Positions 35,164 through 61,899 of a DNA stretch of 64,000 nucleotides are shown here, in pieces. The notes under the pieces were generated by a model, which did not search any database, had not been told where the DNA came from, and saw only the letters and a program-made list of their open reading frames with translations. The DNA comes from an uncultured Candidatus Saccharibacteria bacterium (GTDB lineage Bacteria; Patescibacteriota; Doudnabacteria; UBA920), in NCBI GenBank assembly GCA_964384035.1, contig CAYLIB010000001.1, positions 135,636 through 199,635 on the forward strand. The letters run 5' to 3'. Position numbers and translations under genes: made by a program. The number at the start of each line of letters is the position of its first letter. The first letter of the stretch is position 1.

Positions 35164-35180
35164 AATTTATCGCGATTTTT

Positions 35181-43015: not shown

Positions 43016-43142
43016 ACCTATATAATAGCACAAAACAAAAATATTTTCAATACTTTTTGAAAATAATCACTAATAAAATATATAAATTTAACCCTATTTT
43101 CATTAATCAATTGAAAATAAGCAATATTTTATTCAATAATTA

Positions 43143-43171
43143 TTGACATTTATATAATTTTATGGCATACT
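43143..43171 (+). promoter_or_regulatory. Conserved cassette promoter (copy C)
   Basis: TTGACA, 17 nt, tgg-CATACT (extended -10-like). About 50 bp around it are near-identical to 61759-61812. Confidence 0.55.
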
Positions 43172-43259
43172 ACAACTTAAACCCAAACAAACAGTAACCT
43201 CCTTCACCGGAGGTTTTCGCAAAACCCGTTTTCACCCGTTTTTCGGGCAAGGAGGAAAG

Positions 43260-43529
43260 ATGACAGCTTTACAAATCACCCTCACGGTACTCATCCTGCT
43301 CATGGTTGCTCTTGCGTTCAGTATTATGAACGCGACAGTTGGCACCCCTTCCAATTGGAAGTGGTATCGCCGCTTAAAAGGCGGTCACTGGGAAAAATGG
43401 TGCGTAGATTTCCCCGTTTGTGGGGACGTCTGGCACCAAGTATCACAATGCTCAACTTCCACTGGGCAGCGGCCTACGAGTATCTGTCGGGGTACCCCGA
43501 CCTGCGAGCACTACCCCCAGAAACGGTAG
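43260..43529 (+). CDS. Small membrane protein (high GC)
   Basis: RBS aaggagg. N-terminal transmembrane helix ALQITLTVLILLMVALAFSIM. Start of a high-GC cargo block. Confidence 0.35.
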   Translation: MTALQITLTVLILLMVALAFSIMNATVGTPSNWKWYRRLKGGHWEKWCVDFPVCGDVWHQVSQCSTSTGQRPTSICRGTPTCEHYPQKR

Positions 43530-43709
43530 TGCAAAAAACCGGAAATGGAGAATCGCACATTCTCCATTTCCCTCTTATTAAAAGAAGTAATAAGTTATTT
43601 CTTTCAACGAGAGAAAAATAATACTCCTTACGTTTTGGTCTATTGCGGCCGCACAGATCAAAACAAACCCAAATTTCCGACCCGGCGGAATCCGGGTTTA
43701 AGGAGCAAA

Positions 43710-44222
43710 ATGAACATTTTTTCTTTCGACGCAGAAACTGACGGCTTGCACGGCGACGTGTGGGCAATCGGTGCCGTAGTTCAAGACGAACACGGTACCG
43801 AGATTGCTCGGTTCGCCGGGCAAGTTGACCCTGCTGATCTCACAAATCAGTGGGTAATCGAAAACGTGGTGCCCCACGTAAACCTCCCAGTATTCTCGAC
43901 GCGTCTCGAGCTTCGCGATGCGTTCTGGAAATTCTGGCTTGCCAATAAAAACGATGCGCTGTGCATTGCTGATGTTGGCTCGCCAGTAGAATCGGGATTA
44001 TTCAGCGCCTGTATAGCAGACGATCTTGGTGCGAGACAGTGGAGTGGTCCATACCCGCTCCACGAAGTAGCAACGCTCCTGTTCGCTGCAGGGGTCGACC
44101 CCGATCTTAATCGGGTCGAATTCTCAGGTCTTTCGGGGTTAATTCAACACAACCCGGTAGACGACGCCATCGCCTCAGCCGCTTGCTGGCGAAAGGCGAT
44201 GAAAATTATCAGGAATCACTAA
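43710..44222 (+). CDS. DEDDh-type 3'-5' exonuclease (DnaQ/RNase T-like) (high GC)
   Basis: Exo I motif FDAETDGL; Exo III motif HNPVDDAIASA (H-x4-D). RBS aaggag at 43699-43704. The track ORF's upstream extension (from 43545) is low-GC and is rejected. Confidence 0.55.
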   Translation: MNIFSFDAETDGLHGDVWAIGAVVQDEHGTEIARFAGQVDPADLTNQWVIENVVPHVNLPVFSTRLELRDAFWKFWLANKNDALCIADVGSPVESGLFSACIADDLGARQWSGPYPLHEVATLLFAAGVDPDLNRVEFSGLSGLIQHNPVDDAIASAACWRKAMKIIRNH

Positions 44223-44356
44223 TTTCCACCCGCGGCAGGCGGGCAAATAAACTCACTCAACCAGAGAACGACCCTGCCTCGTTCTCTCCTTTTTCCTAGC
44301 TCGTAAATAAGTTGCGATCTAAGAAAAAATCAAACTCTAAAAAACAAGGAGATCAA

Positions 44357-45172
44357 ATGTTACTAGAAATTTCGAAAGAGAAGATTCTTTCGAGCGAATG
44401 GCAGCTCGGATGGCGCGAATTTAACAACGGAACGATTATTGAAACGTTCCTCGTCGATAAGGAAACTTTCGGTGATTTCAAAATAACGGTTCCTGAATTA
44501 GACCAGCTACCGCTTAAAGGAGAGCGGTTTGCAGAGCGGGTCGAAATTGAACATACCTGTACGGTTGCTGCTCGGGTAACCGAGCGGTATAGGCTGATAA
44601 AGTTTCTAAAAAGACTGGATAAATATGAATTAGGGAAACATTTGGAAAACCGCATCGCGGAGATGAAACCCGAAATGGCGTTAGATGAAAAAACTTATAA
44701 GGAAGCGAGCGAGCGGCTGAATGCTGCAGTACAAGCGCTTCGAGGTTTTCGTTACACTCATGCGTACCGGAAATATCTCCCTACTAGCCCCAACAGGGGG
44801 GTAGCAAAGCGGAAAGCATTGCGTGAGCGCGCAACACTTGAACAGGAGCAAAAAATTGCACAAGAATGCTCGGATATTGTTCTTGGAAGAATGCGAAAGA
44901 ACGAGCATTTCATGAATGCCCTAAAAGAAAAATTCTGGGATAGAGTAAAAGTAGTCTACCGAGAAAAACATGCGCTCGGCCGTCTGCGCTCCTACAAACA
45001 AAGAGGCTATGACGTCTATCCTCACATGAAAGACTCGCTTATGCACGTAGAGGGATACAGCGAAAGAAAGGAAAGCCCCCACTACTCTTCTTTATGGTAC
45101 GAAGACCCTATGAGTCTTGATATACATAGTTTACTAACCAAATTTGTTGTGGATAATGTCCAGACCGAATAA
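44357..45172 (+). CDS. Hypothetical protein (high GC)
   Basis: RBS aacaaggag plus ATG at 44357. 271 aa. Terminator gggagaag / cttctccc plus T8 at about 45226-45260. Confidence 0.5.
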   Translation: MLLEISKEKILSSEWQLGWREFNNGTIIETFLVDKETFGDFKITVPELDQLPLKGERFAERVEIEHTCTVAARVTERYRLIKFLKRLDKYELGKHLENRIAEMKPEMALDEKTYKEASERLNAAVQALRGFRYTHAYRKYLPTSPNRGVAKRKALRERATLEQEQKIAQECSDIVLGRMRKNEHFMNALKEKFWDRVKVVYREKHALGRLRSYKQRGYDVYPHMKDSLMHVEGYSERKESPHYSSLWYEDPMSLDIHSLLTKFVVDNVQTE

Positions 45173-45302
45173 GGTACGAGGATGCATTCAATACTCTCCT
45201 TTTCCACCTACAAAAAGTTACCCTTCGGGAGAAGTCTAAGAACTTCTCCCTCTTTTTTTATACCCTCCAACCCATACCACAAGAGTCAGGTATAATTACT
45301 TC

Positions 45303-47483: not shown

Positions 47484-47512
47484 AAAACAGCCTCCCCGCG
47501 GAGGCTGTTTTA
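47484..47512. terminator. Bidirectional terminator between 45303 and 47510
   Basis: Stem cagcctcccc / ggggaggctg (47488-47507) with flanking A/T runs. Confidence 0.55.
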
Positions 47513-48274
47513 GTTTGTGCTTTTCCATACTAGTTCGAACACCGAAAGTAATGTTTGGTAAATTTCTTTGTTCTCTATAATAACCGCCACATGGTTATTT
47601 TCTTTAAACGTAACAAACGAAACCTTTCCAGAATAAATGTTTACCTCGCTCGCAAAAGGGAATAGACCATACTCCACCCATTTATTCTCTGTAAACTTAT
47701 TAGCCACATAGTTTTTTGTATACGCAACGGCATCCGGATGGTTAAGTACCAATGCCCGCTCGTGAATTCCTAGTTTCAGTCGCTTTGGACCATAATATTT
47801 TTCATTCCATTCGCGCAAGTATTTTAAATAGGTGCTCAAATCGGAAAACGTTGCCAACTTTCCATCTGGGTTGTGTGTTAGCGTATCTTCCAAAACCAAT
47901 TTAACTCCAGCAAGTCCTTCATAAAATCTAACTCCTGGTTTGGCTGCTAAAGTTTGGTACTGGTTACGTAAAGCGGGGAGGTGGGCAAGCAGTTTACTTT
48001 CAGCTTCCGCAAGAGAGTTTTTTTGTTTTGCCACAAATACTTCCAAGCTCTGTGGATCCTTAGCCGCAAACACCGCCCGGTTGTTCGTACCCGCGTACTC
48101 TTCTATAAGCCCCTTACTCTTAAGCGAGTCCAAAGCATAATAGCAACTACCCCGAACAATACTCGTAGCCGAAACAATAGTTTTCATCTGCGAAGGACCA
48201 ATAGAAAGTAGGGTAGTAAGAATCTTACTCTCCCGTTCATTCAGCCCCACAGATTGTAATAACTGCTCGTTCAT
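47510..48274 (-). CDS. TrmB-family winged-HTH transcriptional regulator paralogue (copy 5)
   Basis: N-terminus GLNERESKILTTLLSIGPSQMKTIVSATSIVRGSCYYALDSLKSKGLI. C-terminus LLSVFELVWKS. Confidence 0.65.
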   Translation of the reverse strand: MNEQLLQSVGLNERESKILTTLLSIGPSQMKTIVSATSIVRGSCYYALDSLKSKGLIEEYAGTNNRAVFAAKDPQSLEVFVAKQKNSLAEAESKLLAHLPALRNQYQTLAAKPGVRFYEGLAGVKLVLEDTLTHNPDGKLATFSDLSTYLKYLREWNEKYYGPKRLKLGIHERALVLNHPDAVAYTKNYVANKFTENKWVEYGLFPFASEVNIYSGKVSFVTFKENNHVAVIIENKEIYQTLLSVFELVWKSTN

Positions 48275-48390
48275 AAGCTTATATTAACAAATTTTATCAA
48301 TATTGTCAAAACAATTTTTACACTAAATAACATAAATAAGCAAAAAAACCTCACAAATTCAATAACTTAAATAATTTCGTCAAACTACAA

Positions 48391-48419
48391 TTGACGAAAC
48401 TTCATTTTTCTGGCATAAT
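48391..48419 (+). promoter_or_regulatory. Conserved cassette promoter (copy for 48520)
   Basis: TTGACG, 17 nt, tgg-CATAAT. Followed by a leader (48440-48519) homologous to 61822-61899. Confidence 0.5.
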
Positions 48420-48519
48420 ACTCTTTAAAATCCAAACAAATAAAGACACCAAAGCAATCGCATAGGTGTCTAAGTTCAAAACCCGCGGACTCAGCCGCAA
48501 AAACCACAAGGAGTTCCCA

Positions 48520-49095
48520 ATGAAAGAGAATTTTAATCCAAGTACGCTATTTGTAGAATTGAGAGCGATCGAGCTGATGCTTCAAGGTATGTGTTACGCA
48601 TACACTGAGCCTATATACAAGGCAAGAAAAGAAATAATCGCCCGGTCTGGTCTGGCCGATGGAATTTACGTATTAGCAGGTAGTTCACTCTATAAAAAGG
48701 GAGATGGACGCAAACTCGGGTGGGGGGGCTGGAGTATCTCATCTTTTTTTGCTCCCTTCGGAAACGATAACCTAAGGAGTCATCGTATCGCCAGCAAACA
48801 AATGATGTTCAAAGTCCAAGATGGCGACTGGGACAGCCTGGGACCCCAGACCATGCTGCTCTGTATAGCCACATGGGACAAGGCGGGCGACGAATTCTGG
48901 GAAGGTCGCAACTTCCCAAACGGCTCAAACTACCAAATTTGCAAACTCGAAGGGATTCTGCCCGCTTTAGGCGGCGAAGTGCGAGTGGTTAAGGCCAAAG
49001 GCTCAATCCACTTCAGCACAGAAAGCGATACAGTGGTATACCGGGATTACAATTTCGGTACCCCAAAAGAGGAGGACTGGATTAAGGTCAGTTAG
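48520..49095 (+). CDS. Hypothetical protein; head-to-head cargo of TrmB copy 5
   Basis: RBS aaggag plus ATG at 48520, in frame with the track ORF that starts at 48466. 191 aa. Terminator ggagagaaag / ctttctctcc at about 49108-49143. Confidence 0.5.
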   Translation: MKENFNPSTLFVELRAIELMLQGMCYAYTEPIYKARKEIIARSGLADGIYVLAGSSLYKKGDGRKLGWGGWSISSFFAPFGNDNLRSHRIASKQMMFKVQDGDWDSLGPQTMLLCIATWDKAGDEFWEGRNFPNGSNYQICKLEGILPALGGEVRVVKAKGSIHFSTESDTVVYRDYNFGTPKEEDWIKVS

Positions 49096-49448
49096 AGTTT
49101 ATTTTCTGGAGAGAAAGCCCCGTCTTTCTCTCCACCTTTTTCCAAACCCATAATTCACTTGTGGGTTTAGAAGAAGAAAAAACAAAAACCGCCTTACAGC
49201 GGTTTCTAAAATGGTACTGGAATCCCTAATTTTTCACTCACTTCCCGCATCCACCGAAGCTGAGGTGGGGTCGGTAACAAGCGAGGACATTCGCATGCTG
49301 GGGATGTGCGAGCAGGGGACTTATCGTAAAATTCCTATGGGGTAATGAAAAAGACCCCAACCGGCTGCAAGCAAAAACTTGCAGCCTCTTTTTATTTAAC
49401 TATTTAGTTAAGCTAAAAAGAACAACCTAATACCGTATACTTATATAT

Positions 49449-52400
49449 ATGAGCAGGCGTCCAGAAGAAGTACTTATGTTTGGGGAACAAGAACCTCAAG
49501 TACGAGAATTCAAAGAACCAAAAACACTCGAACAGCAAAAACACGAAGAGCAAATTGCGCTCAATTCTTTTTTGTATGCCGAACCCGCCGAACAGCTAGA
49601 GGTAGACGAAAGCAATCTAGGCTCTTTAATCTCCGAACTCTTAAATTCTCCCTCCGGACAAAGAGCAAAAACAATAATTAACTCTATTGTAGAGTACATA
49701 CAAAGCAGTAAAGAACCGCGCCTGAGAGTTAAACAAGCAGAAAAAGAACTAACGTCGAGTCATATTCACCTAAACATCGAAACACTAACCCTGTTAGGGG
49801 AATTAGATCGGTTTCGGGAAGAGTTCGAAATGGATCCAGAACTCGCCGAAGAGTTAGATTTACAAGATGTACTAGATAATCCCACTAAAGAAAAACTACT
49901 GTACCTTGCAGGAAAAAATGACCGAAAAGGAAATATAGTACTCCATAAAATTCTCGACGCAGCCAAACGCCAGCTCGTTACCCTTCAAAACCTATACGTA
50001 AACCCAAGCACACACGAACCCGAACCCGCAGTCTTTGCTCTTTCCGAGCAAATGCTTGAGTTTGCCCAGGAAGCCAAAGCTGTATGTAAAAACGATCTTC
50101 TGTATAGGCACATATTAGATTACGAAAACACCCGCAGAACAATAGCAACTGGTCTACCCGGTGGCTCCGAAGCAAGTACAGAATATGCATTTGAAAGACT
50201 TATTGAATCTTCAAGCAATCGGCTTGCGTTAGGTCTGTACTCGGAAGAGGGAAGAGATTCGGCCGATGCATGCATTGCGCTAACAGACTCTCTAGTGGGG
50301 GAATATAAGAATGGTAAACTCTTCCGTGTGTACACAAAACCAAGTTCAAACGAAACAGAAACAATTAAAACTGCATGCATTAAGCAAAATCACACAGACG
50401 ATGAATACATTTATGAAGCCCTCCAAAGAGAAATAGACGAATACACCGAACACACCCCGCTTAACTGGAAACTCGAAACTAAACTTCTAATTCATGAATT
50501 CCATAAACATTTAGAGCAGGAAAAACGGACATTTTTCTTCGACCTAAGCAGAATTAACGGCTGGGAAAAGCTCCACCCTGTAGTATTAGACGAAATATTA
50601 GCAACCAACGAGTATGCCGCATTCGCACAAGGTAAGTTGCAGAAAGCAAAACCCGTAAGCAGTGAGGTCTTACAAAATTTACTCGCACCAGCAGGCGCAG
50701 AAAAAGGTGCTGAATACGAATATCAGTACCTCATGAGTCTTGAATACAGAAGTTTTCTGGAAAACTCGCTTGGTATCCCAGTCGAAACATTACCCCCGCA
50801 CGTGCAAGTAGAGTTGCTTCGGGTCAACAACGCGCTTACGAAAGAGAAATTTCACCAAGTCTTAAAAGCCATTAGAGATTCAAAGTTTCCCACAGAACTT
50901 GCTACTGTGTTCTTCTGCGCCCGAGCAGATGAAAGATATATAGACGTAGTCCTAGATATTTTAGAAAAAACAAAATACAAATCTTCCCTCCAAACCACGC
51001 TTTTCGAAGGCTATGCAAACCATGTGGAAGCAGTGCACGGGAAAACGAATGAAGTTCTGCGAGAGCTAGAGCAAAAAGGATTCACATCTCTCTCTTATAC
51101 CGATGTTGCAAAAGCACTACTAGCAGAAAGCGACTTTGCGCTTAAAGACCTCCAGGCAAAACTCGAAGCGCAACCAGATAATGCTAATCAAATAGCACGA
51201 AACTTCCAAAACCTTTTAGGGCAGACGAGCGCAAGCGAACTCTATAAACGTGGCACCTTCGAACAAATTGCTAGAGCTTTCGAAAGTCCAAAAGCAGATA
51301 TCGATCCAGCAGAATGGGCTGCTTCCCAAAAGGTAATCCAACAAGAAATGCTGGAGGGGATAAATAAAGCTCTGTATTTAAGGATGCTGGCAGAAAAAGG
51401 GTTTCTAGCTCCAAAGCCTGCAATATTTTGGGAAATTTCCAGAGGGCTTAAAGAAAGTAATATTCGTTTTGGTGTAGACACAGAAAAGTTTTTAAACAAA
51501 GTAGCAACACGTACCAATGGTGGTGTGCTACTAGAGCTAGGGCCTGGGAGTGGACGAGGCAAAGAAGATCGAGCACACAGCCGGCTTAGTGAATTTCAAG
51601 ACATCGCCATAGGTAATAAAGTCTTTTTCGATCTCGAGCCCATTATTGGATCCTTTTTAGATATAGAAAAACTTGAAGCAGACCTAAACTCGACATTGAA
51701 TGAGGAAGATAGGGCGCTACTTATCGATACGCTCACAAAAGCACTCATGGTCGAGTCAGGTGGGCTTGCCAAAGACCATATTCAGTACGATTCCGAAACA
51801 CTCGAATATCTTGCAAAAGACATAAACACACTTAAAGTAGAATGGGCTAAACATAAAACCAAACTCAAAGGAGTAACCGCCATTCCTAGTAGCGAGGGGG
51901 CAATTGTAGAAGGGGATACAGTACGCTTCCCAAATAAAATCGACATAACCCATCTTGCTGACGCGCTAAATAAAATTGCACAGTCACCGTATCACTATCT
52001 AAATTCACAAACAAAACACCAAGATCTATACACGCACATAAATGCATTCCCAGAAGGTGTCATAATTGGAGACTTCAGCAACTTGAAGCGTTTAAAGAAA
52101 GAAAGCCTGGCCGGAGTTATGGCTATTCGCTCAGATGTCTACATAGAAGGCGCAAATTACGTGGAGCATCTCGCTACGGTCGCCGAAAAACTGCAAGATG
52201 GTGGTGTCTATGTAAGCGACGCCTTCCGCGAACTCTACGGTAAAGGTTACCGCCAGACAGAAATAGAAGCTGTAAAAAAAGTATTACAAGAAAAATTTCC
52301 AAAGGACACGTTCGAATTTTTAATAGTCACCGGCCCTGGTTTCGAAGGCAAAGAAGTAGAAAAAACAATCCCGCTAGCCGTCTACCTAACCAAAAACGCC

Positions 52401-52463
52401 TCCTCTAAAGAAGAAGCTAGGCAAACTCTAGTTTCAGAACGGTACAGTGTGAATGAAATTTAA
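49449..52463 (+). CDS. Giant partner protein (1004 aa), helical with a C-terminal Rossmann/SAM-methyltransferase-like domain; paralogue of 23670..27263
   Basis: LLELGPGSG motif-I-like block and several further collinear blocks shared with the 1197-aa protein. Mid-region AEYEY module shared with the 669-aa protein. Confidence 0.65.
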   Translation: MSRRPEEVLMFGEQEPQVREFKEPKTLEQQKHEEQIALNSFLYAEPAEQLEVDESNLGSLISELLNSPSGQRAKTIINSIVEYIQSSKEPRLRVKQAEKELTSSHIHLNIETLTLLGELDRFREEFEMDPELAEELDLQDVLDNPTKEKLLYLAGKNDRKGNIVLHKILDAAKRQLVTLQNLYVNPSTHEPEPAVFALSEQMLEFAQEAKAVCKNDLLYRHILDYENTRRTIATGLPGGSEASTEYAFERLIESSSNRLALGLYSEEGRDSADACIALTDSLVGEYKNGKLFRVYTKPSSNETETIKTACIKQNHTDDEYIYEALQREIDEYTEHTPLNWKLETKLLIHEFHKHLEQEKRTFFFDLSRINGWEKLHPVVLDEILATNEYAAFAQGKLQKAKPVSSEVLQNLLAPAGAEKGAEYEYQYLMSLEYRSFLENSLGIPVETLPPHVQVELLRVNNALTKEKFHQVLKAIRDSKFPTELATVFFCARADERYIDVVLDILEKTKYKSSLQTTLFEGYANHVEAVHGKTNEVLRELEQKGFTSLSYTDVAKALLAESDFALKDLQAKLEAQPDNANQIARNFQNLLGQTSASELYKRGTFEQIARAFESPKADIDPAEWAASQKVIQQEMLEGINKALYLRMLAEKGFLAPKPAIFWEISRGLKESNIRFGVDTEKFLNKVATRTNGGVLLELGPGSGRGKEDRAHSRLSEFQDIAIGNKVFFDLEPIIGSFLDIEKLEADLNSTLNEEDRALLIDTLTKALMVESGGLAKDHIQYDSETLEYLAKDINTLKVEWAKHKTKLKGVTAIPSSEGAIVEGDTVRFPNKIDITHLADALNKIAQSPYHYLNSQTKHQDLYTHINAFPEGVIIGDFSNLKRLKKESLAGVMAIRSDVYIEGANYVEHLATVAEKLQDGGVYVSDAFRELYGKGYRQTEIEAVKKVLQEKFPKDTFEFLIVTGPGFEGKEVEKTIPLAVYLTKNASSKEEARQTLVSERYSVNEI

Positions 52464-52487
52464 AACTCCCCTTAGGGGAGTTTTTTT
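52462..52487. terminator. Bidirectional terminator between 49449 and 52486
   Basis: Stem ctcccc / ggggag with loop tta, then T7. Confidence 0.55.
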
Positions 52488-53250
52488 AAACAATCATTTT
52501 CCAAAACGTTTCAAATAGTATCCGGTAGTTGTCTGCAATTTCTTGGTTATCTATTAGAATTGCTACCGGATGTTCTTTCTGAAAACTAGTTTGTAGTACG
52601 TACCGGTCAAAAATTTTAATATCCATCCGAAACGGAAATTTCTCTAGTGGTAGTGTCTTAACTTCAAGCAGTAGCTTGGGGTCTGTTTTGTTTACCCTGT
52701 TTACAGCAGGGGAGATAGTGCGCGATTTAATTCCGCGTTTCACCCGCTTTTTTATATAGATATCAACATAGTCTCTAAAGTAAGCATCCATATCGCCTTT
52801 TTCTTCAAAACTCACAACCGTCTTAGCGTTTTCGAGTAAGAACTCATACGCCTGAATTATTCCTTCCTTCCCTTCAAAAAACCTAACCCCTGGACGCCCC
52901 GTGGCTAAATTAAAGTCGATAGTCATTTTCTCAAGAGAGCCAGAAACCGCTTGCTCTGCTACCTTTGCAAGTTCTGCTTTTTTCTCCGCCCATTCCTTCA
53001 GTTTAATTGGATGCGAAGCTTCAAACACCGCCACTTTACCAGGTTCATCTTTTTTAATAACCAGGCCTATCTCTAGTAATCGCTCCAGAATTTTATACAC
53101 CAGTGTTCTTTCTACTGGAATTTTTACACTAATTTTAGAAGCCGGCATCTGTCCATGTATAAGCAGGGCTTCATACACCAAAGCCTGTTCAACGCTAAGT
53201 CCAGAAAGGAGGAGGGTATTATGATGTGAAAAATTTTGAGGAATGTTCAT
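52486..53250 (-). CDS. TrmB-family winged-HTH transcriptional regulator paralogue (copy 6)
   Basis: N-terminus MNIP...LSGLSVEQALVYEALLIHGQMPASKISVKIPVERTLVYKILERLLEIGLV. Closest to copy 1 at 22786. Confidence 0.7.
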   Translation of the reverse strand: MNIPQNFSHHNTLLLSGLSVEQALVYEALLIHGQMPASKISVKIPVERTLVYKILERLLEIGLVIKKDEPGKVAVFEASHPIKLKEWAEKKAELAKVAEQAVSGSLEKMTIDFNLATGRPGVRFFEGKEGIIQAYEFLLENAKTVVSFEEKGDMDAYFRDYVDIYIKKRVKRGIKSRTISPAVNRVNKTDPKLLLEVKTLPLEKFPFRMDIKIFDRYVLQTSFQKEHPVAILIDNQEIADNYRILFETFWKMIV

Positions 53251-53437
53251 GGCTAATATTATTTGTAATTCCCAACTTCATTAGGAATCTTAAGAATTTT
53301 GACCTTTACTACACTAATTATAGCACAATAAAATAATTTTGTGAAGCCATCTTCACAAAATAAGTAAATAAAAATAGGTAGAAAGTACCTATTTTTATTA
53401 TACATACACAAATAAGGCTTAATTATGTGAAATACTA

Positions 53438-53466
53438 TTGACATTTTTCATAAAATACTGTATACT
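53438..53466 (+). promoter_or_regulatory. Conserved cassette promoter (copy B)
   Basis: TTGACA, 17 nt, TATACT. Followed by a leader hairpin and T-run (53519-53577) and a roughly 270-nt GC-rich leader. Confidence 0.5.
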
Positions 53467-53738
53467 GAGTTTTAAACAAATTCTAAAACCAAGTGAGTTT
53501 AGAGAGAGCTCAGTAAGTAAATGGTTTGCCCAGGTTTTCTCTATATATAAGAAATACTGGGCAAGCCATTTTGTTTTAACGCATGGAAGCAAGCGCAGGG
53601 ATTCATTCAAACAAAGCCCGCCACCTTCCTTCCAGCCGCTAAACCAAAACCAATCACTCCCAACGGCACGCGCCCGCGGGAAAAGCCAGAACCTTGGCCA
53701 GCCTGGAAACGGTTCGGCCAAAACCATAAGGAGAAAAA

Positions 53739-54338
53739 ATGAATAAAGACATCGCTTCTATCGAGTTAGATTTTATCGGCACGGTGGAAAAAGTGGCCCT
53801 CAACATTTCGAATACGCTTTCTTTACTTGTGGGGCTGAGTCCCTGGATCAAAAAAGAGAACGTCAATCGCAATGACGGTCCACAGTATTTTTTCCGAAAT
53901 TTACTTCAAGTTGATCTGCATACCATGGTCGTGGTTGCCGACCAGATGCAAGAGTTCCTCGACCCGGAACGCGAGGGAGAAAACAACCTGGAATGGCATA
54001 TCGGCGTAGAGTTCGGTACTGGCAGTGAATTCTACCAGAATCGGAAAATTACGGTCGGTAAGGGGATTAAAATAAAAATTGAAGACCAGACGTTACGTCT
54101 GAGTCTTAAGCCGTCGATAAGCGCCGGAGGCTGCGCAGCCAAGTTGATTCTAGAGTTTCCAGAAGGTCGCGTTACCAGAGAGTTTATCGATGCAATACTC
54201 TGGCAATCTCTTATAGATGTGGGAATTCGAAACGGATTCCAATCATACACTGGGTCTACCTGCGCAACCTGGGGGCCGACGGCCCCTTACTGTGCTGTCG
54301 AGGTACATGAGGTAAAGTGTTACCTCGAACGCGAGTGA
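53739..54338 (+). CDS. Hypothetical protein (high GC); first gene of island 2
   Basis: RBS aaggag. 199 aa. Confidence 0.5.
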   Translation: MNKDIASIELDFIGTVEKVALNISNTLSLLVGLSPWIKKENVNRNDGPQYFFRNLLQVDLHTMVVVADQMQEFLDPEREGENNLEWHIGVEFGTGSEFYQNRKITVGKGIKIKIEDQTLRLSLKPSISAGGCAAKLILEFPEGRVTREFIDAILWQSLIDVGIRNGFQSYTGSTCATWGPTAPYCAVEVHEVKCYLERE

Positions 54339-54715
54339 TATTCCCGACGAAAGAAAGTCCGCCTCAACTTTCTTTCGTCACCTTTTTTAGAACCATCACT
54401 CACAAAGTGGTGTTTCGAAATCAGGTAATTACTAAAGAGGTTTGCATCTTTTCTATTTGCCCTCGTTCTGCGAAGCGAGAGGGGAAACCGGTCTTTCATC
54501 CTTAAGGATGAAGAAAATATTTTCCCTCACCCGCCTCGCAGAACCCTCCACCATGTATTCCTATGTTTTCTAATGTCATTCCGGGCGACTGAAAGGAGAT
54601 CCGGAATCCGTGAGATTAAAAGACTTAGTCGTCCCACCCCACACGAGTGGACACAGGACAAAAGAGCCGCAGAATACCGGCTATGGAGGAATGAAGCGGG
54701 GCAGAAGGAAAAGTA

Positions 54716-55060
54716 ATGAATCAGAGATATTTCAACACTACCCTCGGCCTCTCCATGCTCCCCGACGGCGGAGCAGAGATCAAAACCCTCACCGACGACG
54801 AGGCGAAAGCCTGGTTGGTGGCCGACTTCACCAACGCCGCCAACCCGGCCCATGGCAACACCTTGCAAGCCCTCACCCAAAAACTCGGCGTAGACCTTAC
54901 TCTCGCGGAAGGCACCAAAGCCCCACGTGTGTATCTCGAGCACGGCGACCAGTGCCTCGTCGCTGAAGTCTCGAAAATCCCCCGGGAAACACGAGAGTTC
55001 ACCGATGAGGAGATAGGTGTCGCGACTTTCAGATTTCGATTGGTCACGGTAAGTAGTTAG
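54716..55060 (+). CDS. Hypothetical protein (high GC)
   Basis: 114-aa ORF in island 2. Confidence 0.4.
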   Translation: MNQRYFNTTLGLSMLPDGGAEIKTLTDDEAKAWLVADFTNAANPAHGNTLQALTQKLGVDLTLAEGTKAPRVYLEHGDQCLVAEVSKIPRETREFTDEEIGVATFRFRLVTVSS

Positions 55061-55087
55061 TAGTTAGCTGTTTTCCAAAGGAGGCAA

Positions 55088-55411
55088 ATGAAAGTTTCAA
55101 AAGCGGTGGTTTCTTACTTACTCCGGAGGGCGGAGTATGAATTAGGTTCAGAATTCAGGGAACCGGAAGAGTGGCGTGAGGATGAAATCACGTCAGAAGG
55201 ATTAGAACTTCACTTCGGTTTCCATTTTGGTTCTAACTCATCGGACTGGTGCAGCACGCCAGTCCAAGTTCGTCCTTCTCGCGAAGGCGAGAATCTTCTG
55301 GAGTATAAACAGAAGATAGTAGGAAAGATAGCGGAGGCTATCGCCGAGTTAAATCGGCACATAGACACGCATCTGTCTACATACCCGCATGAACAGAAGG
55401 ACAATGAGTAA
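55088..55411 (+). CDS. Hypothetical protein (high GC)
   Basis: 107-aa ORF with RBS aaggagg. Confidence 0.4.
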   Translation: MKVSKAVVSYLLRRAEYELGSEFREPEEWREDEITSEGLELHFGFHFGSNSSDWCSTPVQVRPSREGENLLEYKQKIVGKIAEAIAELNRHIDTHLSTYPHEQKDNE

Positions 55412-55541
55412 GTTTCGAACGGTGCAGGTTTTTAGATAGGAGAAAAGTTTCCTTTCCTGCACCGAACCTTTTTCGGGGGCGTGATCCAAAGCGGATCGTG
55501 CTTGACCCGAAATTGGCAACTACATTTTAAAGGAGGCAAGA

Positions 55542-56051
55542 ATGAGATTGATAGTAAACTGCGAGATTAGTTTCCGGGGCATTCTATGGAATGCGCCATG
55601 GTACCTAACATTTTTACTCTCAGAAGGGGATAAGAGAAATTATTTGCTATATGACTTGCTTCTCCAAACGGAGAGGGTAGTCATCAGTCAAACAGGGTAT
55701 GACGACGAAATTGGTCGAGGGTATGAACTTGATTTTCTTTCCAAGGAAGGTAATCTTCTGCAAAAAGAATACGGCGCTGCACACAGCGTTAGTCTTGAGG
55801 ATGCGGGGTGCCGAAACCTTTTCTTTTATGAAAACCCAGTGTTTTCTGAAGAGTTCTTGGTAAACCTTGCAAAGCAAGGGAATCAAGTTGCTGAGCATAT
55901 GCTAAGGCGCAGATCGATTCCTCCCGAACTCTGGGAGAAATATCAGTATGTGTTTCCCAGTCCGGAGCTGCTCCCTGCATATACCTGGGAGTATCCAATT
56001 TCAGAGGAGCAAAAGCAAGAAATTAAATTGCTTTTAGAAAACAAGCAATGA
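55542..56051 (+). CDS. Hypothetical protein
   Basis: 169-aa ORF with RBS aaaggagg. Confidence 0.4.
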   Translation: MRLIVNCEISFRGILWNAPWYLTFLLSEGDKRNYLLYDLLLQTERVVISQTGYDDEIGRGYELDFLSKEGNLLQKEYGAAHSVSLEDAGCRNLFFYENPVFSEEFLVNLAKQGNQVAEHMLRRRSIPPELWEKYQYVFPSPELLPAYTWEYPISEEQKQEIKLLLENKQ

Positions 56052-56299
56052 ATTGCTTATAGAAGGAAAACTATAAACCCGCCTGTGATTGCTTGGGTGT
56101 TACATAAGCAGTGCGTAAGTGGGGGACGCGTATAACTCCCACAGCGTGCTAGTTGCATGTCTACTTTAAAAACTCGTCATGTGAACACTGTTCACATGCC
56201 TTCCTCCCAGGTAACAAATATGGTTCTCTCTCCACATTTGTTGCCGGAGAGGAGGGTAATAAAACCCAAACACCAAAGCTTTCTTTCAAAGGAGATCAT

Positions 56300-58714
56300 A
56301 TGCCTATTATCGACATCACCGCCCAAGTCCGAGCCCGTCAAGAACAAGAACGGTTAAGCCAGCAGGCCGAGCAGGAAGCCAAAGAAGCCCCTGCCAAAGC
56401 CTGGTGGGGAAAAAACGGCACCTTCATTGAGGCGCATGTAACAACAAGATTGAAGCAACTAACTATCGGATCCACTCCAACTATAGAGGTGGATGGGCAC
56501 GAGGTAACATTCGTCACCCAGACTCTTCTGGGCGAACTACTAAACCAACCCTCAACCGAGGTTGCTCCCCAGATACAGTATTCCTGGGGGTGCGAGGTCT
56601 ACGTGGAAGGGTTCGAAACCCGGTTTCATTCCCACGTTAAGCACGAAGAAGTGCGACAAGGCTGGGGTTTAGTTAAACCCGGTGAACTGCGTCGGTGGGA
56701 CGAGAAAAATTTTACGGTAAGTGTTGAGTTTCAAATCCTTAATACGCATTCCGCAAAATTTACTCTAACTTGTCCGGTTGTCCCACAAGCCCCTGAGCTT
56801 AGGGGAGACCACGTCTTTCAATCGCTTATAGTTCAGCTCCCGAACGGTGAGGTCCTAGCTCAAGAGAACAATCTCACCAGACATGCGTTCAAGGGGCTAT
56901 GGGGTGACTTCGATGCAGAAAAATTAAAACTTCAAGGCATCGACCAAGAAGTTAAAAAGCTCGAAGCAATAATCAATCTAGAAACGCCAAAATGTGAGCT
57001 CTCTATGGTCGGAGTCACTCGCTACGAAAGTAGCGGCGCCCTGGTTGTAAAAGGTGATGTTTGGCACACGGGCCCCCCGGCCCAAAGTGTCCCATATCGC
57101 GTACAGGTAACAGCGTTGCTTTTCAATTTTTCCACTCCAACTTTTTCAAAGTCCGAAAAGGGAATTGGGGTGGACGATCTCAAGGTCGAAGTGAATCAAA
57201 AATTCGACCGTGAACAAATTAGAAAAAAAATTGAAAGCTATGTTACCGGGAAAATTCAAAACGCGGGCTTCCAAGTTAACGAGTACTCGCAAAAACTTAT
57301 TGACTCTTTGGTAGAAGCCTGCATAAAGGCAATGCCAAGGGTTGTAATTGAAAGCCAAGTTCTCGTGGTTGAAGAAGACCCATTCCAGCACAACCAAACC
57401 CGGGCAGAACAAGCCTACCCCGGCATGGGTATCTGCCCAAATGGACACGACGGGAAACTCCGAAAAGTTCTCCTCCCCGAAGTTGCAGAGTTTCTGGGAG
57501 TAAAAGGCGAACTTTTGGAAAATATTCCCGTGCAGTGGGGGTTGGGGCGAGTGGGCATGGGTTCACTCTTGAGTTTAGAAAACTTCACCGACCAACGTTT
57601 GGTTTTCGCAAGCCCTTTGCACCCAATAGGCGCTCGCTTTAAAGCGCAGGTAAAAACCCAAAACGGCAAAGCCAGCGCAACCACAGTTTTTAGTGCTAAT
57701 GTCATGCGCGACGTCACTCGTTACACCACAGGTGGCCCGGTAACCGAACCGGTCATTGTGGGAACCAAAAACGCCGAACATACATTCGCGGTGAGTCTCC
57801 CCGCAGGTTTCAAAGGCGACCTCAATGGTGAATATGAAATCGAGGTCTGCGACACTCACCAAAGACGCGGGACAGAATGTGTCTACATGGTCATTCTGCC
57901 AGAAGTGGCAGCAGACCAAGATGACTATTCAGTGACCGAAAGCTTTGTGGTTGGTATCGAAACCAGTGGTAGCCGCAGCTTCGAGCAAGTGTGGGTAATT
58001 TCCCCCAAAGGGAAATTTATTCCGCACTCTCGCGCCGAAGCAAGGGGAGGTAGGCGAGGCAGACCAGCAGACCGCACTCGCTACCACTGGGACTCCGCTC
58101 CTGCCGGGTGTCTCGTACTCACCCGGAGGCAGTCCAATTACGGCTACACCCACTCAGTGGAGTTCGTGGTCGTAAGGAAACCAGGGATTATCTCAAAAGA
58201 GCAACTGAGTGCAGTCGAAGTAATTCTCCAGAATACAACCAACTGGAAATACTTCGTCGGCTCCCAAGTTCGGTGGGATCTCTCCAAAGTGGGAAGCGTC
58301 ACCTTCACCACCGAACGGGAAGCAGGTCGTGATGATCTGGAAGATTTTATCCGCCAGATCAGCACCGCCCCGGTAAACCCGTTCGACTACGAGATCAAAC
58401 GGGAAGCAATACCTCCGGATTCCGAATTGAGGTCTCCGGCCGGTGTCCGCTTCACCGTCTATCCACTAAAAGCAGGTAACCAAATCCCACCCACAGAACT
58501 TTCTGCGCCAGTGGGTGAGGCTGAAACCGAGGGCGTCAAATTCGAACTCATGCCTTCCTCTCCTGGCTGGCTTCGCTGCAGCTGCGGGCGAGCCGAAATG
58601 TATTGGAAGAAGGCCGAGTGGAAAGCGCTCGAGCCCGAATCCAAACACACCGTAACCTGTAAGGGTTGCAGGGGAGTGGGCGAAATTCAAAAACCAAAGG
58701 AGGTAAAAAACTAA
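56300..58714 (+). CDS. 804-aa protein with a C-terminal zinc-ribbon EWKAL module (high GC); paralogue by C-terminus of 13301..15718
   Basis: RBS aaaggag plus ATG at 56300; the track's upstream extension from 56153 is rejected. C-terminus GWLRCSCGRAEMYWKKAEWKALEPESKHTVTCKGCRGVG matches that of the island-1 805-aa protein. Confidence 0.6.
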   Translation: MPIIDITAQVRARQEQERLSQQAEQEAKEAPAKAWWGKNGTFIEAHVTTRLKQLTIGSTPTIEVDGHEVTFVTQTLLGELLNQPSTEVAPQIQYSWGCEVYVEGFETRFHSHVKHEEVRQGWGLVKPGELRRWDEKNFTVSVEFQILNTHSAKFTLTCPVVPQAPELRGDHVFQSLIVQLPNGEVLAQENNLTRHAFKGLWGDFDAEKLKLQGIDQEVKKLEAIINLETPKCELSMVGVTRYESSGALVVKGDVWHTGPPAQSVPYRVQVTALLFNFSTPTFSKSEKGIGVDDLKVEVNQKFDREQIRKKIESYVTGKIQNAGFQVNEYSQKLIDSLVEACIKAMPRVVIESQVLVVEEDPFQHNQTRAEQAYPGMGICPNGHDGKLRKVLLPEVAEFLGVKGELLENIPVQWGLGRVGMGSLLSLENFTDQRLVFASPLHPIGARFKAQVKTQNGKASATTVFSANVMRDVTRYTTGGPVTEPVIVGTKNAEHTFAVSLPAGFKGDLNGEYEIEVCDTHQRRGTECVYMVILPEVAADQDDYSVTESFVVGIETSGSRSFEQVWVISPKGKFIPHSRAEARGGRRGRPADRTRYHWDSAPAGCLVLTRRQSNYGYTHSVEFVVVRKPGIISKEQLSAVEVILQNTTNWKYFVGSQVRWDLSKVGSVTFTTEREAGRDDLEDFIRQISTAPVNPFDYEIKREAIPPDSELRSPAGVRFTVYPLKAGNQIPPTELSAPVGEAETEGVKFELMPSSPGWLRCSCGRAEMYWKKAEWKALEPESKHTVTCKGCRGVGEIQKPKEVKN

Positions 58715-58836
58715 CACGAGGGTCACCCTCATCACACACCGGGGACGATAAAACATACGTCCCCCTCTTTTTCCAGCCTGTGACCACCATCGTCGTCGGC
58801 ATGGAAATTGAGAAAAATTTTATAAGGAGAAAAATT

Positions 58837-59514
58837 ATGGAGCTAACTAATCAGGAGTTATTCTGGGTAGCGGTAGCAATGTTACCGCAGGGTTCAAAAA
58901 GAAGAGTTAGGCTAGAGCGTATGCAAGAAGAATCAGAACTGTGCCTGGTATGTGGGTACATCGACCAAGGTGACCCAGTTCACAAAGTACACGGCGAGAA
59001 AGTTTTGGAATACCTACGAGAATTAGAAGCCGGTCTAAAAGTATGTTGCGCCGCATACCCCAACTGTCACAACGACCCTGGCGGATATGTGCTAATAGGC
59101 GGTCCTGAGGAGATTAGGTTTTGCTCCGACTTCTGTCGGTTGAGTCTAATGAATCCAAAAAAATACAAAAAACTCCTCGCCCAAACCCCTAAGGAAGGAG
59201 AGGTGGAAAACTTCGAAAAGAAGTTAAAGAAAATTCCTCTCAAAGCAATAAAAAAAGCCGTGGGTGAAACCGAACAAAGAGAGGGGATAGACGTCCCCAC
59301 TAGTATTACGGAAAAAGACAGAGAATCTGTTATAAAATATTTACTAGTAGTAAGGTCTGTTGAATCCGGTGCATGGGATTGGATAAACCATCCCGATAGA
59401 CTTTACGCCAACATTACCAAAATCGAAGGCTTAACAATTTACGGTCACGTTTTCTACGATGACCAAGAGGACTTCGAGGAGGTCGAAATAGACCTCACTT
59501 TTTCAGGGGATTAA
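58837..59514 (+). CDS. Cys-rich protein (high GC); last gene of island 2
   Basis: RBS aaggag plus ATG at 58837. Cysteine clusters CLVCGY, CCAAYPNCHND and FCSDFC. Terminator gggatt / aatccc plus T-run at about 59508-59535. Confidence 0.5.
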   Translation: MELTNQELFWVAVAMLPQGSKRRVRLERMQEESELCLVCGYIDQGDPVHKVHGEKVLEYLRELEAGLKVCCAAYPNCHNDPGGYVLIGGPEEIRFCSDFCRLSLMNPKKYKKLLAQTPKEGEVENFEKKLKKIPLKAIKKAVGETEQREGIDVPTSITEKDRESVIKYLLVVRSVESGAWDWINHPDRLYANITKIEGLTIYGHVFYDDQEDFEEVEIDLTFSGD

Positions 59515-59577
59515 AAAAATCCCTTGCTTTTTTTATTCCCCCGGATTTCGCTATACTATCTCTATAATAAAAAACCT

Positions 59578-60744
59578 ATGCCCGAAACCCATCACGCAGA
59601 ATATGATTTTCCAGAATTTCGCATCCCTTCTGAGACAGAATTCATAGAATACCAAGAAGGTAAAGAAGCGGAATATATAAACTCGATACTAGATATTAAA
59701 ACAGCAGAAAAAATACCAGAACGCGCCAAGGTCCCACTGGTAAGGTTTCTACAAAAATATGCAGAATACCCAACAGGTGCAACAGCACAGCTCCGTTTCG
59801 GAATACAAAGGCTGCCCGAAAAAGCTCGGATAGAGCTATTAAGTGGGTTCGCTGCAGCAGATATAAGTGAAGACTACGCCCTAACACTTGTTTCTCTTGC
59901 GCGCAACGTAAGAGACACTCGTGCAGTATCCGAATTAATGTCTACGTTTAACGCAATTCTAGACAACGCCGAAAAAGTAGACGACTTTTTGGGAGAATCA
60001 TATAAGTCGGAAGGTGTAGACAAAGAAGCAATGAGCACAGCCGCCAAGCAAAGCCTTGTACGTCGTGCAGCACGTGTCCTGAGTAACCAAGGGATAGGTA
60101 TAGGCCTTAGTTCTATAACAATTGAGCAAGCACGCAAAGAGCTTACACATATTAACGCAGACGCGCTGCTAACCACACAAACCATTCGAGCAGCACTTGA
60201 AAACGATTCAGAGTTTACATTAGAAAAGCTTAAAACGCTCACCATAGAATCCGGCTACGGAAACAATATACCACCAGAAAATATTCAAGCTCTCATAGAA
60301 ATAAACACAGAAAATTGGACAACCAAAGAAGGGAAAGAAAAAACTTCAAGTGAGTATATCGAAGAATTGAATCGTAAATTTGAAGAGCTAAAAAATAACC
60401 CCAATGCAAAGCTTGCGGTATTAAAAGACAAAGAAGAGATAGTCGCCGGAGTCTATTATATAGACGAGCGCGGCGAAGACGGAGAGATAAAGAGTATATA
60501 TGCCGGCGGGTTTAACGTACGCAAAAGCTATCAGAAAGAAAAAGTGGGTGAGTTATTTTTGAGCCAAACGCTTGCCGACGAACGAAAAAGAAACTTAAAA
60601 ATAAGAAGCATAACCAGTCCCAACCAACCTATGCTTCCTAAGTATATAAAAATGGGTTTTAAAGAAGGACGACATTTTACTTTAGAAACTGGCGAACCCA
60701 GAGTAGAGCTAGAAATTCCACCCGATGCATCACGCCCCGCCTAA
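59578..60744 (+). CDS. Partner protein (about 388 aa) with a GNAT-like C-terminal domain; short paralogue of 40218..42227
   Basis: C-terminus IVAGVYYIDERGEDGEIKSIYAGGFNVRKSYQKEKVGELF is homologous to that of the 669-aa protein. ATG at 59578 preferred; the track start at 59524 lies inside the upstream terminator. Confidence 0.5.
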   Translation: MPETHHAEYDFPEFRIPSETEFIEYQEGKEAEYINSILDIKTAEKIPERAKVPLVRFLQKYAEYPTGATAQLRFGIQRLPEKARIELLSGFAAADISEDYALTLVSLARNVRDTRAVSELMSTFNAILDNAEKVDDFLGESYKSEGVDKEAMSTAAKQSLVRRAARVLSNQGIGIGLSSITIEQARKELTHINADALLTTQTIRAALENDSEFTLEKLKTLTIESGYGNNIPPENIQALIEINTENWTTKEGKEKTSSEYIEELNRKFEELKNNPNAKLAVLKDKEEIVAGVYYIDERGEDGEIKSIYAGGFNVRKSYQKEKVGELFLSQTLADERKRNLKIRSITSPNQPMLPKYIKMGFKEGRHFTLETGEPRVELEIPPDASRPA

Positions 60745-60756
60745 CGCGGGGTTTTA
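60733..60756. terminator. Bidirectional terminator between 59578 and 60754
   Basis: Stem gccccgc / gcggggt with loop ctaa (containing the stop codon), then tttt. Confidence 0.5.
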
Positions 60757-61539
60757 TAATGCCCGCGCCTTCTCCCATGTAAACTCGTACAACTGTCTAT
60801 GCAATTCAGCTATATGAGCGTCTTCAATAATAACTCCAATATATTTGTCCTTCTCAAACGTCATATAGCTAATCTTATTGTCGTAAATCTGAAGCATGCT
60901 CTTAAACTGCATGGGGGAGTGGACACGGTCTACTAAGCGAATGTCTGTAATATCACGGTGGTAGTCTGCTAAATACGCACGGTTCTCCAAAGAATCATTC
61001 ACCAAATTTCGTTTCTTTATTTTAAGTCGTCTACGGACCTTAACGTATTCATCGTTAAGGTCTTTTAAATGCGCCTGAATAACCGACATATCCAAATAGG
61101 CAAGTATCTCACCTTTGGCAGTTAAGTTATCGAATGCCACCGTACGAATTCCTTCCAGTCCTTCAAAAAATTGCACCGAAGGTTTCCCAACCGACAAGTT
61201 GTACTCAGAAGAAAGTGTCCCCATAACAGCAGCCAGCGACTCTTTAGCGGTTTGTGCTTCTTTTTCGCGTCGTGCAATAAGCTCCTCTAAGTGTCTCGGG
61301 TGATTCGCCTCAAACAAAGCCACCTTCCCCGGTTCATCTTTCTTTACAACAAGCTCAAGTTCTAATAATTGATCCAGAATCCGATATGCGATAACCCGTT
61401 CCATCTGTACTGCACTAGCCAATTTACTAGCAGTACTCGCACCACTCTTAAGAAGCGATTCATACACCAAAGCCTGCTGGTCAGTTAAGCCGGCCAACGT
61501 TAAATGTTCAAAGTATGTATGTGAGTGGGGGATGTTCAT
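60754..61539 (-). CDS. TrmB-family winged-HTH transcriptional regulator paralogue (copy 7)
   Basis: MNIPHSHTYFEHLTLAGLTDQQALVYESLLKSGASTASKLA... Close paralogue of copy 4. Shares the MNIP start with copy 6; the track's upstream ATG at 61572 is the alternative. Confidence 0.7.
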   Translation of the reverse strand: MNIPHSHTYFEHLTLAGLTDQQALVYESLLKSGASTASKLASAVQMERVIAYRILDQLLELELVVKKDEPGKVALFEANHPRHLEELIARREKEAQTAKESLAAVMGTLSSEYNLSVGKPSVQFFEGLEGIRTVAFDNLTAKGEILAYLDMSVIQAHLKDLNDEYVKVRRRLKIKKRNLVNDSLENRAYLADYHRDITDIRLVDRVHSPMQFKSMLQIYDNKISYMTFEKDKYIGVIIEDAHIAELHRQLYEFTWEKARAL

Positions 61540-61766
61540 ATGTTGCGTTAGGGTATGTAAGAAATCACACATACCATAGATTCCTGTTACCCGAATAAAT
61601 GAAAACCATTCATTCCGAGCCTAAGAAACTCTTTTCTATAAACTATTATATCACAACAAGATAATTTTGTAAAACAAAAAGTTACAAAAACATATAAATA
61701 AAATAAGCAAAATGTGCTTATTATATTAAATAATATTACAAATACAAATATTTTGTATCAATATTA

Positions 61767-61795
61767 TTGACATTTATATAAATTTATGGCATACT
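61767..61795 (+). promoter_or_regulatory. Conserved cassette promoter (copy D)
   Basis: TTGACA, 17 nt, tgg-CATACT. Identical to 43143-43171 apart from one spacer base. Confidence 0.55.
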
Positions 61796-61899
61796 ATCAC
61801 TTAAACCAAAACGCAAAAAAACCGAACTCCAAAGCAAGCGCTAAGGTATTCATATCTAAAAACTACAACGCGGCCTCAGCCGCAAAATAAGGAGAGAAA

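Follow-up and report, generated by a model that had tools for sequence, protein, structure and literature searches.

In a 64-kb chromosomal stretch from an ultra-small Patescibacterium (the window; contig CAYLIB010000001.1, ~43% GC), genes for TrmB-like regulators stand head-to-head with strong promoters that are followed by GC-rich genes, here termed cargo. These promoters are probably guarded by repressors, and their conserved promoter, leader and ribosome-binding site (RBS) segments probably act as recombination junctions. Four of them, at 43143, 48391, 53438 and 61767, define the modules w43, w48, w53 and w61, and 22627(-) defines w22. Related loci (L numbers) were retrieved through TrmB homology, using four of the seven paralogues in the window as queries. 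Breakpoints were mapped against only two relatives, the closest metagenome-assembled genome (MAG; L004) and a strain whose TrmB is 99.9% identical (L003). Homologues of the TrmB regulators were found almost exclusively in MAGs of Patescibacteria, also known as the candidate phyla radiation.

A sequence-only reading of the window had assigned one design to the four promoters: TTGAC(A/G), a 17-nt spacer, tgg/ctg and a (C/T)ATA(C/A)T box. All four were found at these positions, matching 10–11 of the 12 sigma-70 hexamer positions with 17-nt spacing, and the hexamer design has 8 matches in 64 kb versus 0.15 expected. Because the promoters of the TrmB genes themselves match too, this design is by itself only the generic extended -10 sigma-70 consensus. 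The tgg/ctg element held for 43143, 48391 and 61767, which carry a TGn extended -10, but not for 53438, which has no true TGn. The distinguishing feature of the cargo promoters is an additional box, YTTAAA, four nucleotides after the -10 and followed by an A/C-rich start. The full pattern (TTGACR, 17 nt, YATAMT, 4 nt, YTTAAA) occurs exactly six times in the window, versus 0.57 expected, and all six matches are cargo-type promoters (6175+, 22627-, 43143+, 48391+, 53438+ and 61767+).

The w43 promoter (43143–43181, +) reads TTGACA-N17-CATACT-N4-CTTAAA, the last element being the +1 box, and the near-palindrome ATTTATATAATT lies inside its spacer (43148–43159). The w61 promoter (61767–61805, +) also reads TTGACA-N17-CATACT-N4-CTTAAA, with the 12-bp palindrome ATTTATATAAAT within the spacer (61772–61783). 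The w48 promoter (48391–48429, +) is TTGACG-N17-CATAAT-N4-TTTAAA and that of w53 (53438–53476, +) is TTGACA-N17-TATACT-N4-TTTAAA, the latter matching the 22627(-) promoter at 39 of 48 positions. The near-identity previously noticed over some 50 bp of the 43143 and 61767 copies was confirmed, with 44 of 49 core positions and 16 of 17 spacer positions identical; the flanks match at 50 of 100 positions upstream and 18 of 60 downstream. The ATTTATATAAAT spacer palindrome was considered as an ancient operator, a candidacy weakened by its absence from the w43 orthologues in L080 and L081.

An alternative explanation is that these are ordinary strong sigma-70 promoters of an AT-rich genome, whose likeness reflects convergence on the consensus and low-complexity sequence. 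This would agree with the fit of the hexamer pattern to the TrmB promoters and other sites, and with a general promoter scan of 42–62 kb that showed no enrichment (31 sites versus 27.7 in shuffles). In addition, eight unrelated metagenome contigs without a TrmB gene hold a 27/29-identical promoter of the 43143 type and a similar upstream TATCAATAT flank. Nevertheless, we consider this explanation unlikely, as adding the YTTAAA box to the pattern leaves the six cargo promoters and no other site, the spacers of w43 and w61 differ at a single position, the leader similarity described below extends to a third module, and the architecture recurs beside TrmB homologues phylum-wide. The shared platform thus exceeds generic hexamers in its specific +1 box, in a promoter and leader mosaic that does not follow the TrmB protein tree and in its recurrence in distant Patescibacteria.

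The TrmB-less contigs include L053, L054, L056, L057, L061, L063 and L066, and at least three are labelled human gut; such matches warn that convergence can produce even long AT-rich promoters of the consensus type. A metagenome scan with the 29-mer promoter retrieved, besides these contigs, one related lineage with a TrmB homologue (42% identical, like the Jacksonbacteria MAG locus L009) and no close relatives.

The leaders of w48 (48420–48519, +) and w61 (61796–61899, +), earlier put at about 70% identity, align with ~71% identity. Their local alignment score of 46 compares with 18.3 ± 2.8 for dinucleotide shuffles, none of 300 reaching 46 (z=9.8). In w48, an A/C-rich start is followed by a first hairpin (HP1, 48444–48471) surrounding the core CCAAAGCAATCGCATAGG (48449–48466), a second hairpin (HP2; GCGGACTCAGCCGC, 48485–48498) and an AAGGAG RBS. 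The w61 leader holds the core CCAAAGCAAGCGCTAAGG (61829–61846), the HP2 sequence GCGGCCTCAGCCGC (61870–61883) and again AAGGAG. A partial copy of the shared block, missed by the sequence-only reading, forms the second of three parts of the composite w53 leader (53467–53738, +), with AAGCAAGCGC at 53585–53600 and CCAGCCGCTAAA at 53632–53643. The first part is a GAGAGAG unit with TTAGAGAGAGC (53499–53509) and an intrinsic terminator (stem arms 53520–53534 and 53557–53571, then TTTTGTTTT), and the third is the RBS ATAAGGAGAAAAA at 53727. The w43 leader (43172–43259, +) has only the A/C-rich start in common with the others; its CCTCC (43198–43202) is predicted to pair with either a nearby GGAGG or the RBS AGGAGG.

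One interpretation of this conservation is that the shared leader, with HP1 around CCAAAGCAAKCGC and HP2 GCGGNCUCAGCCGC before the RBS, is a selected cis-regulatory RNA element. Genes unrelated to one another would then share a post-transcriptional control, exerted for instance by a protein, a small RNA or RBS occlusion. Consistent with this, both hairpins form in the folded leaders of w48 and L003 (z of -3.3 and -3.5, respectively), HP1 shows two compensatory pair changes between them, HP2 lies directly upstream of the RBS in three copies, and the leader is conserved far beyond the flanking genes. In w61, CUCC of the HP1 5' arm is also predicted to pair with GGAG of the RBS. However, the comparison comprises four sequences only, and HP1 is broken in w61, where two of seven pairs are mismatched and the 3' arm resembles that of w48. 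Of the four leader copies, three preserve the CGG.CTCAGCCGC hairpin reported before the RBS; the fourth, w53, retains the sequence, but its 5' arm is not complementary, which argues for sequence conservation or shared ancestry rather than structure. Searches with nhmmer, using three leader copies, retrieved no additional copy in the window or in 87 fetched loci, and a viral-contig scan with the leader pattern gave only chance matches inside coding regions. No Rfam covariance model reached its gathering score in the window and eight related loci, and at E<=1 only chance-level matches appeared. A selected RNA element therefore appears possible but doubtful. The leader may stabilise the mRNA or tune translation; the one demonstrated property of the block is that it contains a recombination junction.

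Similarity among the regulatory pieces is mosaic. Promoter similarity partly tracks the TrmB tree, with w43 pairing with w61 and w53 with w22. The w43 and w61 promoters are as alike as those of w61 and its L004 orthologue (43/49), even though the TrmBs are 37.5% identical in the former pair and 83–85% in the latter. Orthologues of the w43 regulator in L080 and L081 (47–50% identity) have different promoter spacers. The leader block, in turn, is common to w48, w61 and w53, whose TrmBs are 25–34% identical, while w43, the nearest module to w61, has another leader. This pattern would most simply be explained if short regulatory segments had recently been copied from module to module within one genome, possibly with reinforcement by selection.

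Comparison with the two relatives located three junctions within these conserved pieces. Homology between L004 and the window runs from a GNAT gene through TrmB and the w61 promoter, ends at 61811, just past CTTAAAC, and restarts at 63466, right after the terminator. The window segment 61812–63465 has thus been replaced wholesale, the interval being 1.65 kb with a 510-aa gene in the window and 3.6 kb with 707-aa and 380-aa genes in L004. In L003, identity is 99.2% over the GNAT gene, 99.9% over TrmB and 98.5% over the spacer, and reaches 100% from the promoter through CCAAAGCAAGCGCTAAGG (CGCTAAGG); beyond this point, the remaining leader is 80% and the cargo open reading frame (ORF) 82% identical. 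This drop maps a crossover to 61846/61847, within the conserved core of the leader. Between the two cargo alleles, dS (synonymous divergence) is 0.58, and their ratio of non-synonymous to synonymous divergence (dN/dS) of 0.20 indicates that the 510-aa gene is functional. The third junction is in w53, where L004 retains promoter and leader through the RBS, fused directly to the orthologue of 58837–59514. The 5.1 kb present in the window and absent from L004 (the island-2 segment, 53739–58836, +) lie between identical RBSs, ATAAGGAGAAAAA, at 53727 and 58824. L004 also carries an extra TrmB module that is absent from the window. The earlier claim of variable cargo on a fixed platform is therefore upheld where cargo differs between relatives, with breakpoints at the +1 box, leader core and RBS, but it does not extend to w43, whose cargo is conserved.

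The sequence-only reading had also likened this arrangement to cassette-capture systems. In its fullest form, a site-specific recombinase encoded elsewhere would insert promoterless cassettes, integron-like, at a defined site downstream of the fixed promoter, either the +1 box (CTTAAAC) or the hairpin of the leader. In L004, the left breakpoint does coincide precisely with CTTAAAC, a sequence similar to the TTRRRY portion of integron core sites. Another copy of CTTAAACCC occurs close to where the replacement in L004 ends on the right, the L003 crossover falls within the loop or 3' arm of HP1, and each cargo gene is a compact leader–ORF–terminator unit. The first cargo gene follows the conserved promoter without another predicted promoter, while distal genes may have their own. 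Against capture, no integrase, recombinase or transposase domain was detected in the ~50 ORFs scanned with Pfam across the window. A window-wide repeat search found no attC-like family at the cassette 3' ends, which are dissimilar ordinary intrinsic terminators. The motif CTTAAACC is not significantly enriched (8 occurrences versus 3.9 expected) and does not mark the other cassette boundaries. The junctions fall at three different elements, one at CTTAAAC, one in the leader core and the third at the RBS, with no site common to them, and the w43 cargo is stably inherited. A dedicated capture system is thus very improbable, and the resemblance to integrons is functional at most. As in an integron (Pc, attI and IntI, with attC cassettes), a fixed promoter precedes an exchange position for compact, dissimilar and compositionally foreign genes, and one of the junctions is no more than a few bases from a TTAAAC motif. 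Unlike in integrons, there are about seven platforms, each paired with a regulator of its own, rather than one array, and the junctions vary, in addition to the missing IntI and attC family and the ordinary terminators.

The regulators themselves are more numerous than the five head-to-head spacers previously implied, as seven TrmB paralogues were counted in the window. Two are on the forward strand (22786–23658 and 31511–32275) and five on the reverse strand: 36201–36965, 42224–43033 (w43; 42224–43015 and 263 aa from the ATG), 47510–48274 (w48), 52486–53250 (w53) and 60754–61572 (w61). All seven score 36.8–62.9 bits with the TrmB winged-helix profile PF01978 (cut-off 25.6), and a profile built from them matches the TrmBL2 structures 5box, 5bpd and 5bqt over residues 15–262, i.e. 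full length, with an E-value of 1.3e-10. Pairwise identity is 22–51%, the closest pairs being 22786/52486 (51%) and 42224/60754 (37.5%). According to published data, TrmBL2 is a binder of AT-rich DNA that acts by repression or insulation (PMC11840125, PMC4877046); in the window, the spacers between TrmB and promoter have a GC content of 20–31%.

The TrmB genes have promoters of their own, predicted at 61645–61673(-) for w61 (TTTACA-17-TGATATAAT) and, equivalently, at 53317–53345(-), 48281–48309(-), 43022–43050(-) and 36998–37026(-). These are of the TATAAT type, without the YTTAAA box, and their -35 lies inside a small inverted repeat. For TrmB 42224 (ATG at 43015) and TrmB 47510, the ATG is located only 6–7 nt past the -10 box (43015–43050(-) and 48274–48309(-)), so that both mRNAs are probably leaderless.

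In the module layout, a large protein without Pfam domains lies tail-to-tail with TrmB, which is followed by its own promoter, an AT-rich spacer containing a small hairpin, the cargo promoter, the leader and at least one GC-rich gene, each with its own intrinsic terminator. The large partners have 670–1200 aa and often overlap TrmB by 4–22 nt; those at 40218–42227, 49449–52463 and 23670–27263 are paralogues. The pairing was also found in other lineages (L081 8777–11260, L082 5872–8922, L084 3980–6556 and L087 5794–8352), and the order TrmB, large protein, polA in L086 mirrors 22786–30137 of the window. TrmB and the large protein thus look like a conserved gene pair.

Candidate operators overlap the -35 boxes. 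In w48, a perfect inverted repeat, TTTCGTCAA-N7-TTGACGAAA (48375–48399), has the -35 as its right arm and is a candidate operator. An inverted partner of the -35 hexamer (at least 5/6) was found at 9 of 27 promoters versus 3.95 in shuffles (P 0.009), and a perfect one at three of the 27 (P 0.001), further examples being TTGACA-N4-TGTCAA in L084 and L087. This pattern is as would be expected for an operator overlapping the -35 and fits the published TrmBL2 data.

The architecture is not restricted to the window. Among 48 TrmB-homology loci, a large share have a divergent promoter 120–230 bp upstream of the TrmB start, and the consensus of 25 non-redundant TrmB-linked promoters from diverse Patescibacteria is exactly TTGACA-17-TATACT. 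In many lineages, the DNA 3' of the promoter is markedly more GC-rich than the TrmB gene (e.g. 0.61 versus 0.39 in L005 and 0.64 versus 0.32 in L036).

Taken together, these sites would be the strong promoters of a Patescibacteria-wide module consisting of a large Pfam-less protein, a TrmBL2-like regulator, an AT-rich spacer, promoter, leader and GC-rich genes. Each TrmB paralogue would bind operators over the -35 and spacer of the divergent promoter, as well as its own promoter, and keep a very strong promoter shut until a signal arrives. Judging only by the mosaic similarity pattern, the modules may have multiplied by duplication. Short pieces (the promoter core of w43/w61, the leader block of w48/w61/w53 and the RBS) would then have been copied between modules, because of which the regulatory pieces are far more alike than the neighbouring genes. 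The same pieces would serve as exchange junctions, accounting for the replacement from the +1 box, the allele swap in the leader core and the 5.1-kb indel between identical RBSs. Exchange would most likely follow DNA uptake and use ordinary recombination, either homologous or through short homology, with no dedicated recombinase.

Several points weigh against this proposal. Selecting loci by TrmB homology biases breakpoints to the cargo side, and only two relatives were informative. Because the w43 cargo is kept with its TrmB orthologue in L080 and L081, variable cargo is not general; the w43 module is a stable regulon and not a captured cassette. The GC-rich composition lasts in distant lineages, a poor fit to recent import and amelioration. 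The class promoter at 6175 has no adjoining TrmB gene. Operator candidates vary among modules, with none obvious at 22627, and the promoter and operator assignments come only from consensus matches.

More tentatively, and as a less probable extension of the repressor-guarded exchange proposed here, a TrmBL2-like repressor together with its near-perfect promoter and standardised, often GGAGAGAG-studded leader might constitute a phylum-wide, recombinase-free 'landing pad', its segments providing portable homology for swapped-in foreign genes. If so, foreign genes would be put at once under tight, inducible control, and the system would be a functional analogue of integrons in which a regulator and recombination junctions take the place of the integrase and attC sites. 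Patescibacteria have tiny genomes and few regulators, and their gene control is largely unknown. The module would be among the first regulatory architectures recognisable in this group and would explain how newly acquired genes are expressed and controlled. As the sequences are compact and near-consensus, promoter and regulator pairs are directly testable in a heterologous host.

Other known systems share parts of this organisation. TrmBL2 of Thermococcales (PDB 5box/5bpd) has the same PF01978 winged helix and full-length similarity, and the spacers here are AT-rich; however, it is a single abundant chromatin protein, whereas here many divergent bacterial paralogues each face one divergent promoter. 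Divergent units of a repressor and a strong promoter beside accessory or defence genes (such as BrxR- and CapW-type regulators at defence systems, or TetR/tetA) are likewise head-to-head, with a candidate operator over the -35 and a conserved regulator beside accessory regulated genes. They differ in regulator family, in that no PADLOC defence match was found in the cargo, and in the near-consensus promoter maintained across the phylum. Horizontal gene transfer and genomic islands are reported to be common in Patescibacteria (PMC12455944). As in flexible genomic islands or replacement hotspots, cargo of foreign-looking composition is replaced between conserved flanks by recombination, but the left flank here is a regulatory element of tens of bases that is shared by paralogous modules, not a core gene.

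The first genes behind the promoters have a GC content of 47–57% and a GC content at third codon positions (GC3) of 0.50–0.70, compared with 37–43% and 0.30–0.44 for TrmB, large distal and housekeeping genes. The w43 cargo (43260–44287, +) comprises an 89-aa Cys-rich membrane protein (terminator 43541–43571) and a DEDD exonuclease (~43710–44222, terminator 44263–44287). A GC-rich palindrome, TTGCGGCCGCAC(A/G)GA, precedes the exonuclease RBS (43685–43705) and is kept in L080 (~7440–7460(-)). The w48 cargo (48520–49134, +; GC 48%, terminator 49107–49134) is a 191-aa ORFan that matched only itself among 5.8 billion proteins. The w61 cargo (61900–63465, +) is the 510-aa gene (61900–63432; GC 54%, GC3 0.58, intrinsic terminator 63441–63463). 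Its product has 21 remote homologues, none with a Pfam domain; the AlphaFold model is confident only at residues 164–390, and Foldseek found no credible fold match for it in the PDB.

The cargo genes had been described as mutually unrelated. No BLAST similarity was found among their proteins, but the 865-aa database protein P0022 links the 510-aa protein to two island proteins: it matches the 510-aa central domain (E 1e-18) and also the C-terminal ~70 aa of the proteins encoded at 13301–15718 and 56153–58714 (E 5e-6 and 5e-4, respectively). On these matches, three modules may have cargo proteins from a single modular family. PADLOC gave no significant match for 10 cargo proteins, and PADLOC, PHROGs, NCBIfam and Pfam together yielded only a weak RNase H/exonuclease match and a weak STIV_B116-like match, the latter for the 114-aa island-2 gene (54716–55060, E 0.008). 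A sequence search of solved structures retrieved no match for the 114-aa or 804-aa cargo proteins. The TrmB-linked promoter of two Paceibacterota loci has as its first downstream gene a homologue of the ring nuclease Csx3 (PF09620, E 2.7e-7; L028 5380–5685(-) and L031 5382–5687(-)), which hints that some cargo is tied to cyclic-oligonucleotide signalling or defence.

Two members of the promoter class lie outside the four modules. The fifth, 22627(-) (22617–22655, -), stands head-to-head with TrmB 22786–23658 and is predicted to drive an ~870-nt non-coding leader followed by island 1 (21755 to 13301). The sixth (6175–6213, +) has an upstream ORF, 5301–6047, that is not TrmB-like; a divergent TrmB was ruled out by profile comparison. 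Downstream of this promoter (6175–6420), a long perfect hairpin, GGGGTGCAAATACTCTGTACAT...ATGTGCAGAGTATTTGCACCC, is followed by a T-run, which suggests a ~200-nt terminated RNA upstream of a 125-aa ORF (6505–6882).

Many TrmB-linked leaders are long (0.3–1.3 kb) and non-coding and carry repeated GGAGAGAG, TAGAGAGAG or TGAGAGAG motifs. Sense leaders contain 66 motifs in 60 kb (1.1/kb), versus 0.10/kb in antisense and 0.034/kb in the rest of the loci, so that the GGAGAGAG motif is strand-specific and ~32-fold enriched in these leaders. A flanking stem of at least 4 bp was found in 30 of 69 instances, against 16.5 ± 3.3 in shuffles, and the stem sequences vary. The window has such elements at 53499 (unit 53493–53577), 22588(-) and 22398(-), with an intrinsic terminator after the first two. 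Motif-bearing loci are L005–L009, L016–L021, L024, L026, L030, L034, L038, L039, L048, L052, L081, L082, L084 and L087. No Rfam family matched the motif. With this strong statistical support, the GGAGAGAG hairpin-loop motif is a candidate for a new class of structured leader or sponge-like RNA.

As to the surroundings of the modules, the window includes genes for PolA, RecQ, TsaE and a PilB-type ATPase, and no tRNA genes. The same or nearly the same sequence was found in the Joint Genome Institute metagenome contig Ga0068518_1000007 and in Logan assemblies. A nucleotide search of the 20-kb region against plasmid and phage collections gave no match. At the 3' side of the 510-aa gene, 29 nt (63531–63559, repeat D16) resemble the 5' untranslated region of TrmB 60754 (61618–61646; 72% identity) and may represent what is left of a TrmB gene that once preceded the patatin gene (start ~63668). 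Finally, an 80-nt direct repeat with 94% identity (35179–35258 and 38029–38108) overlaps recQ at its 3' end with one copy, the second being 2.85 kb upstream, near 35377–35784, suggesting a recent partial duplication.

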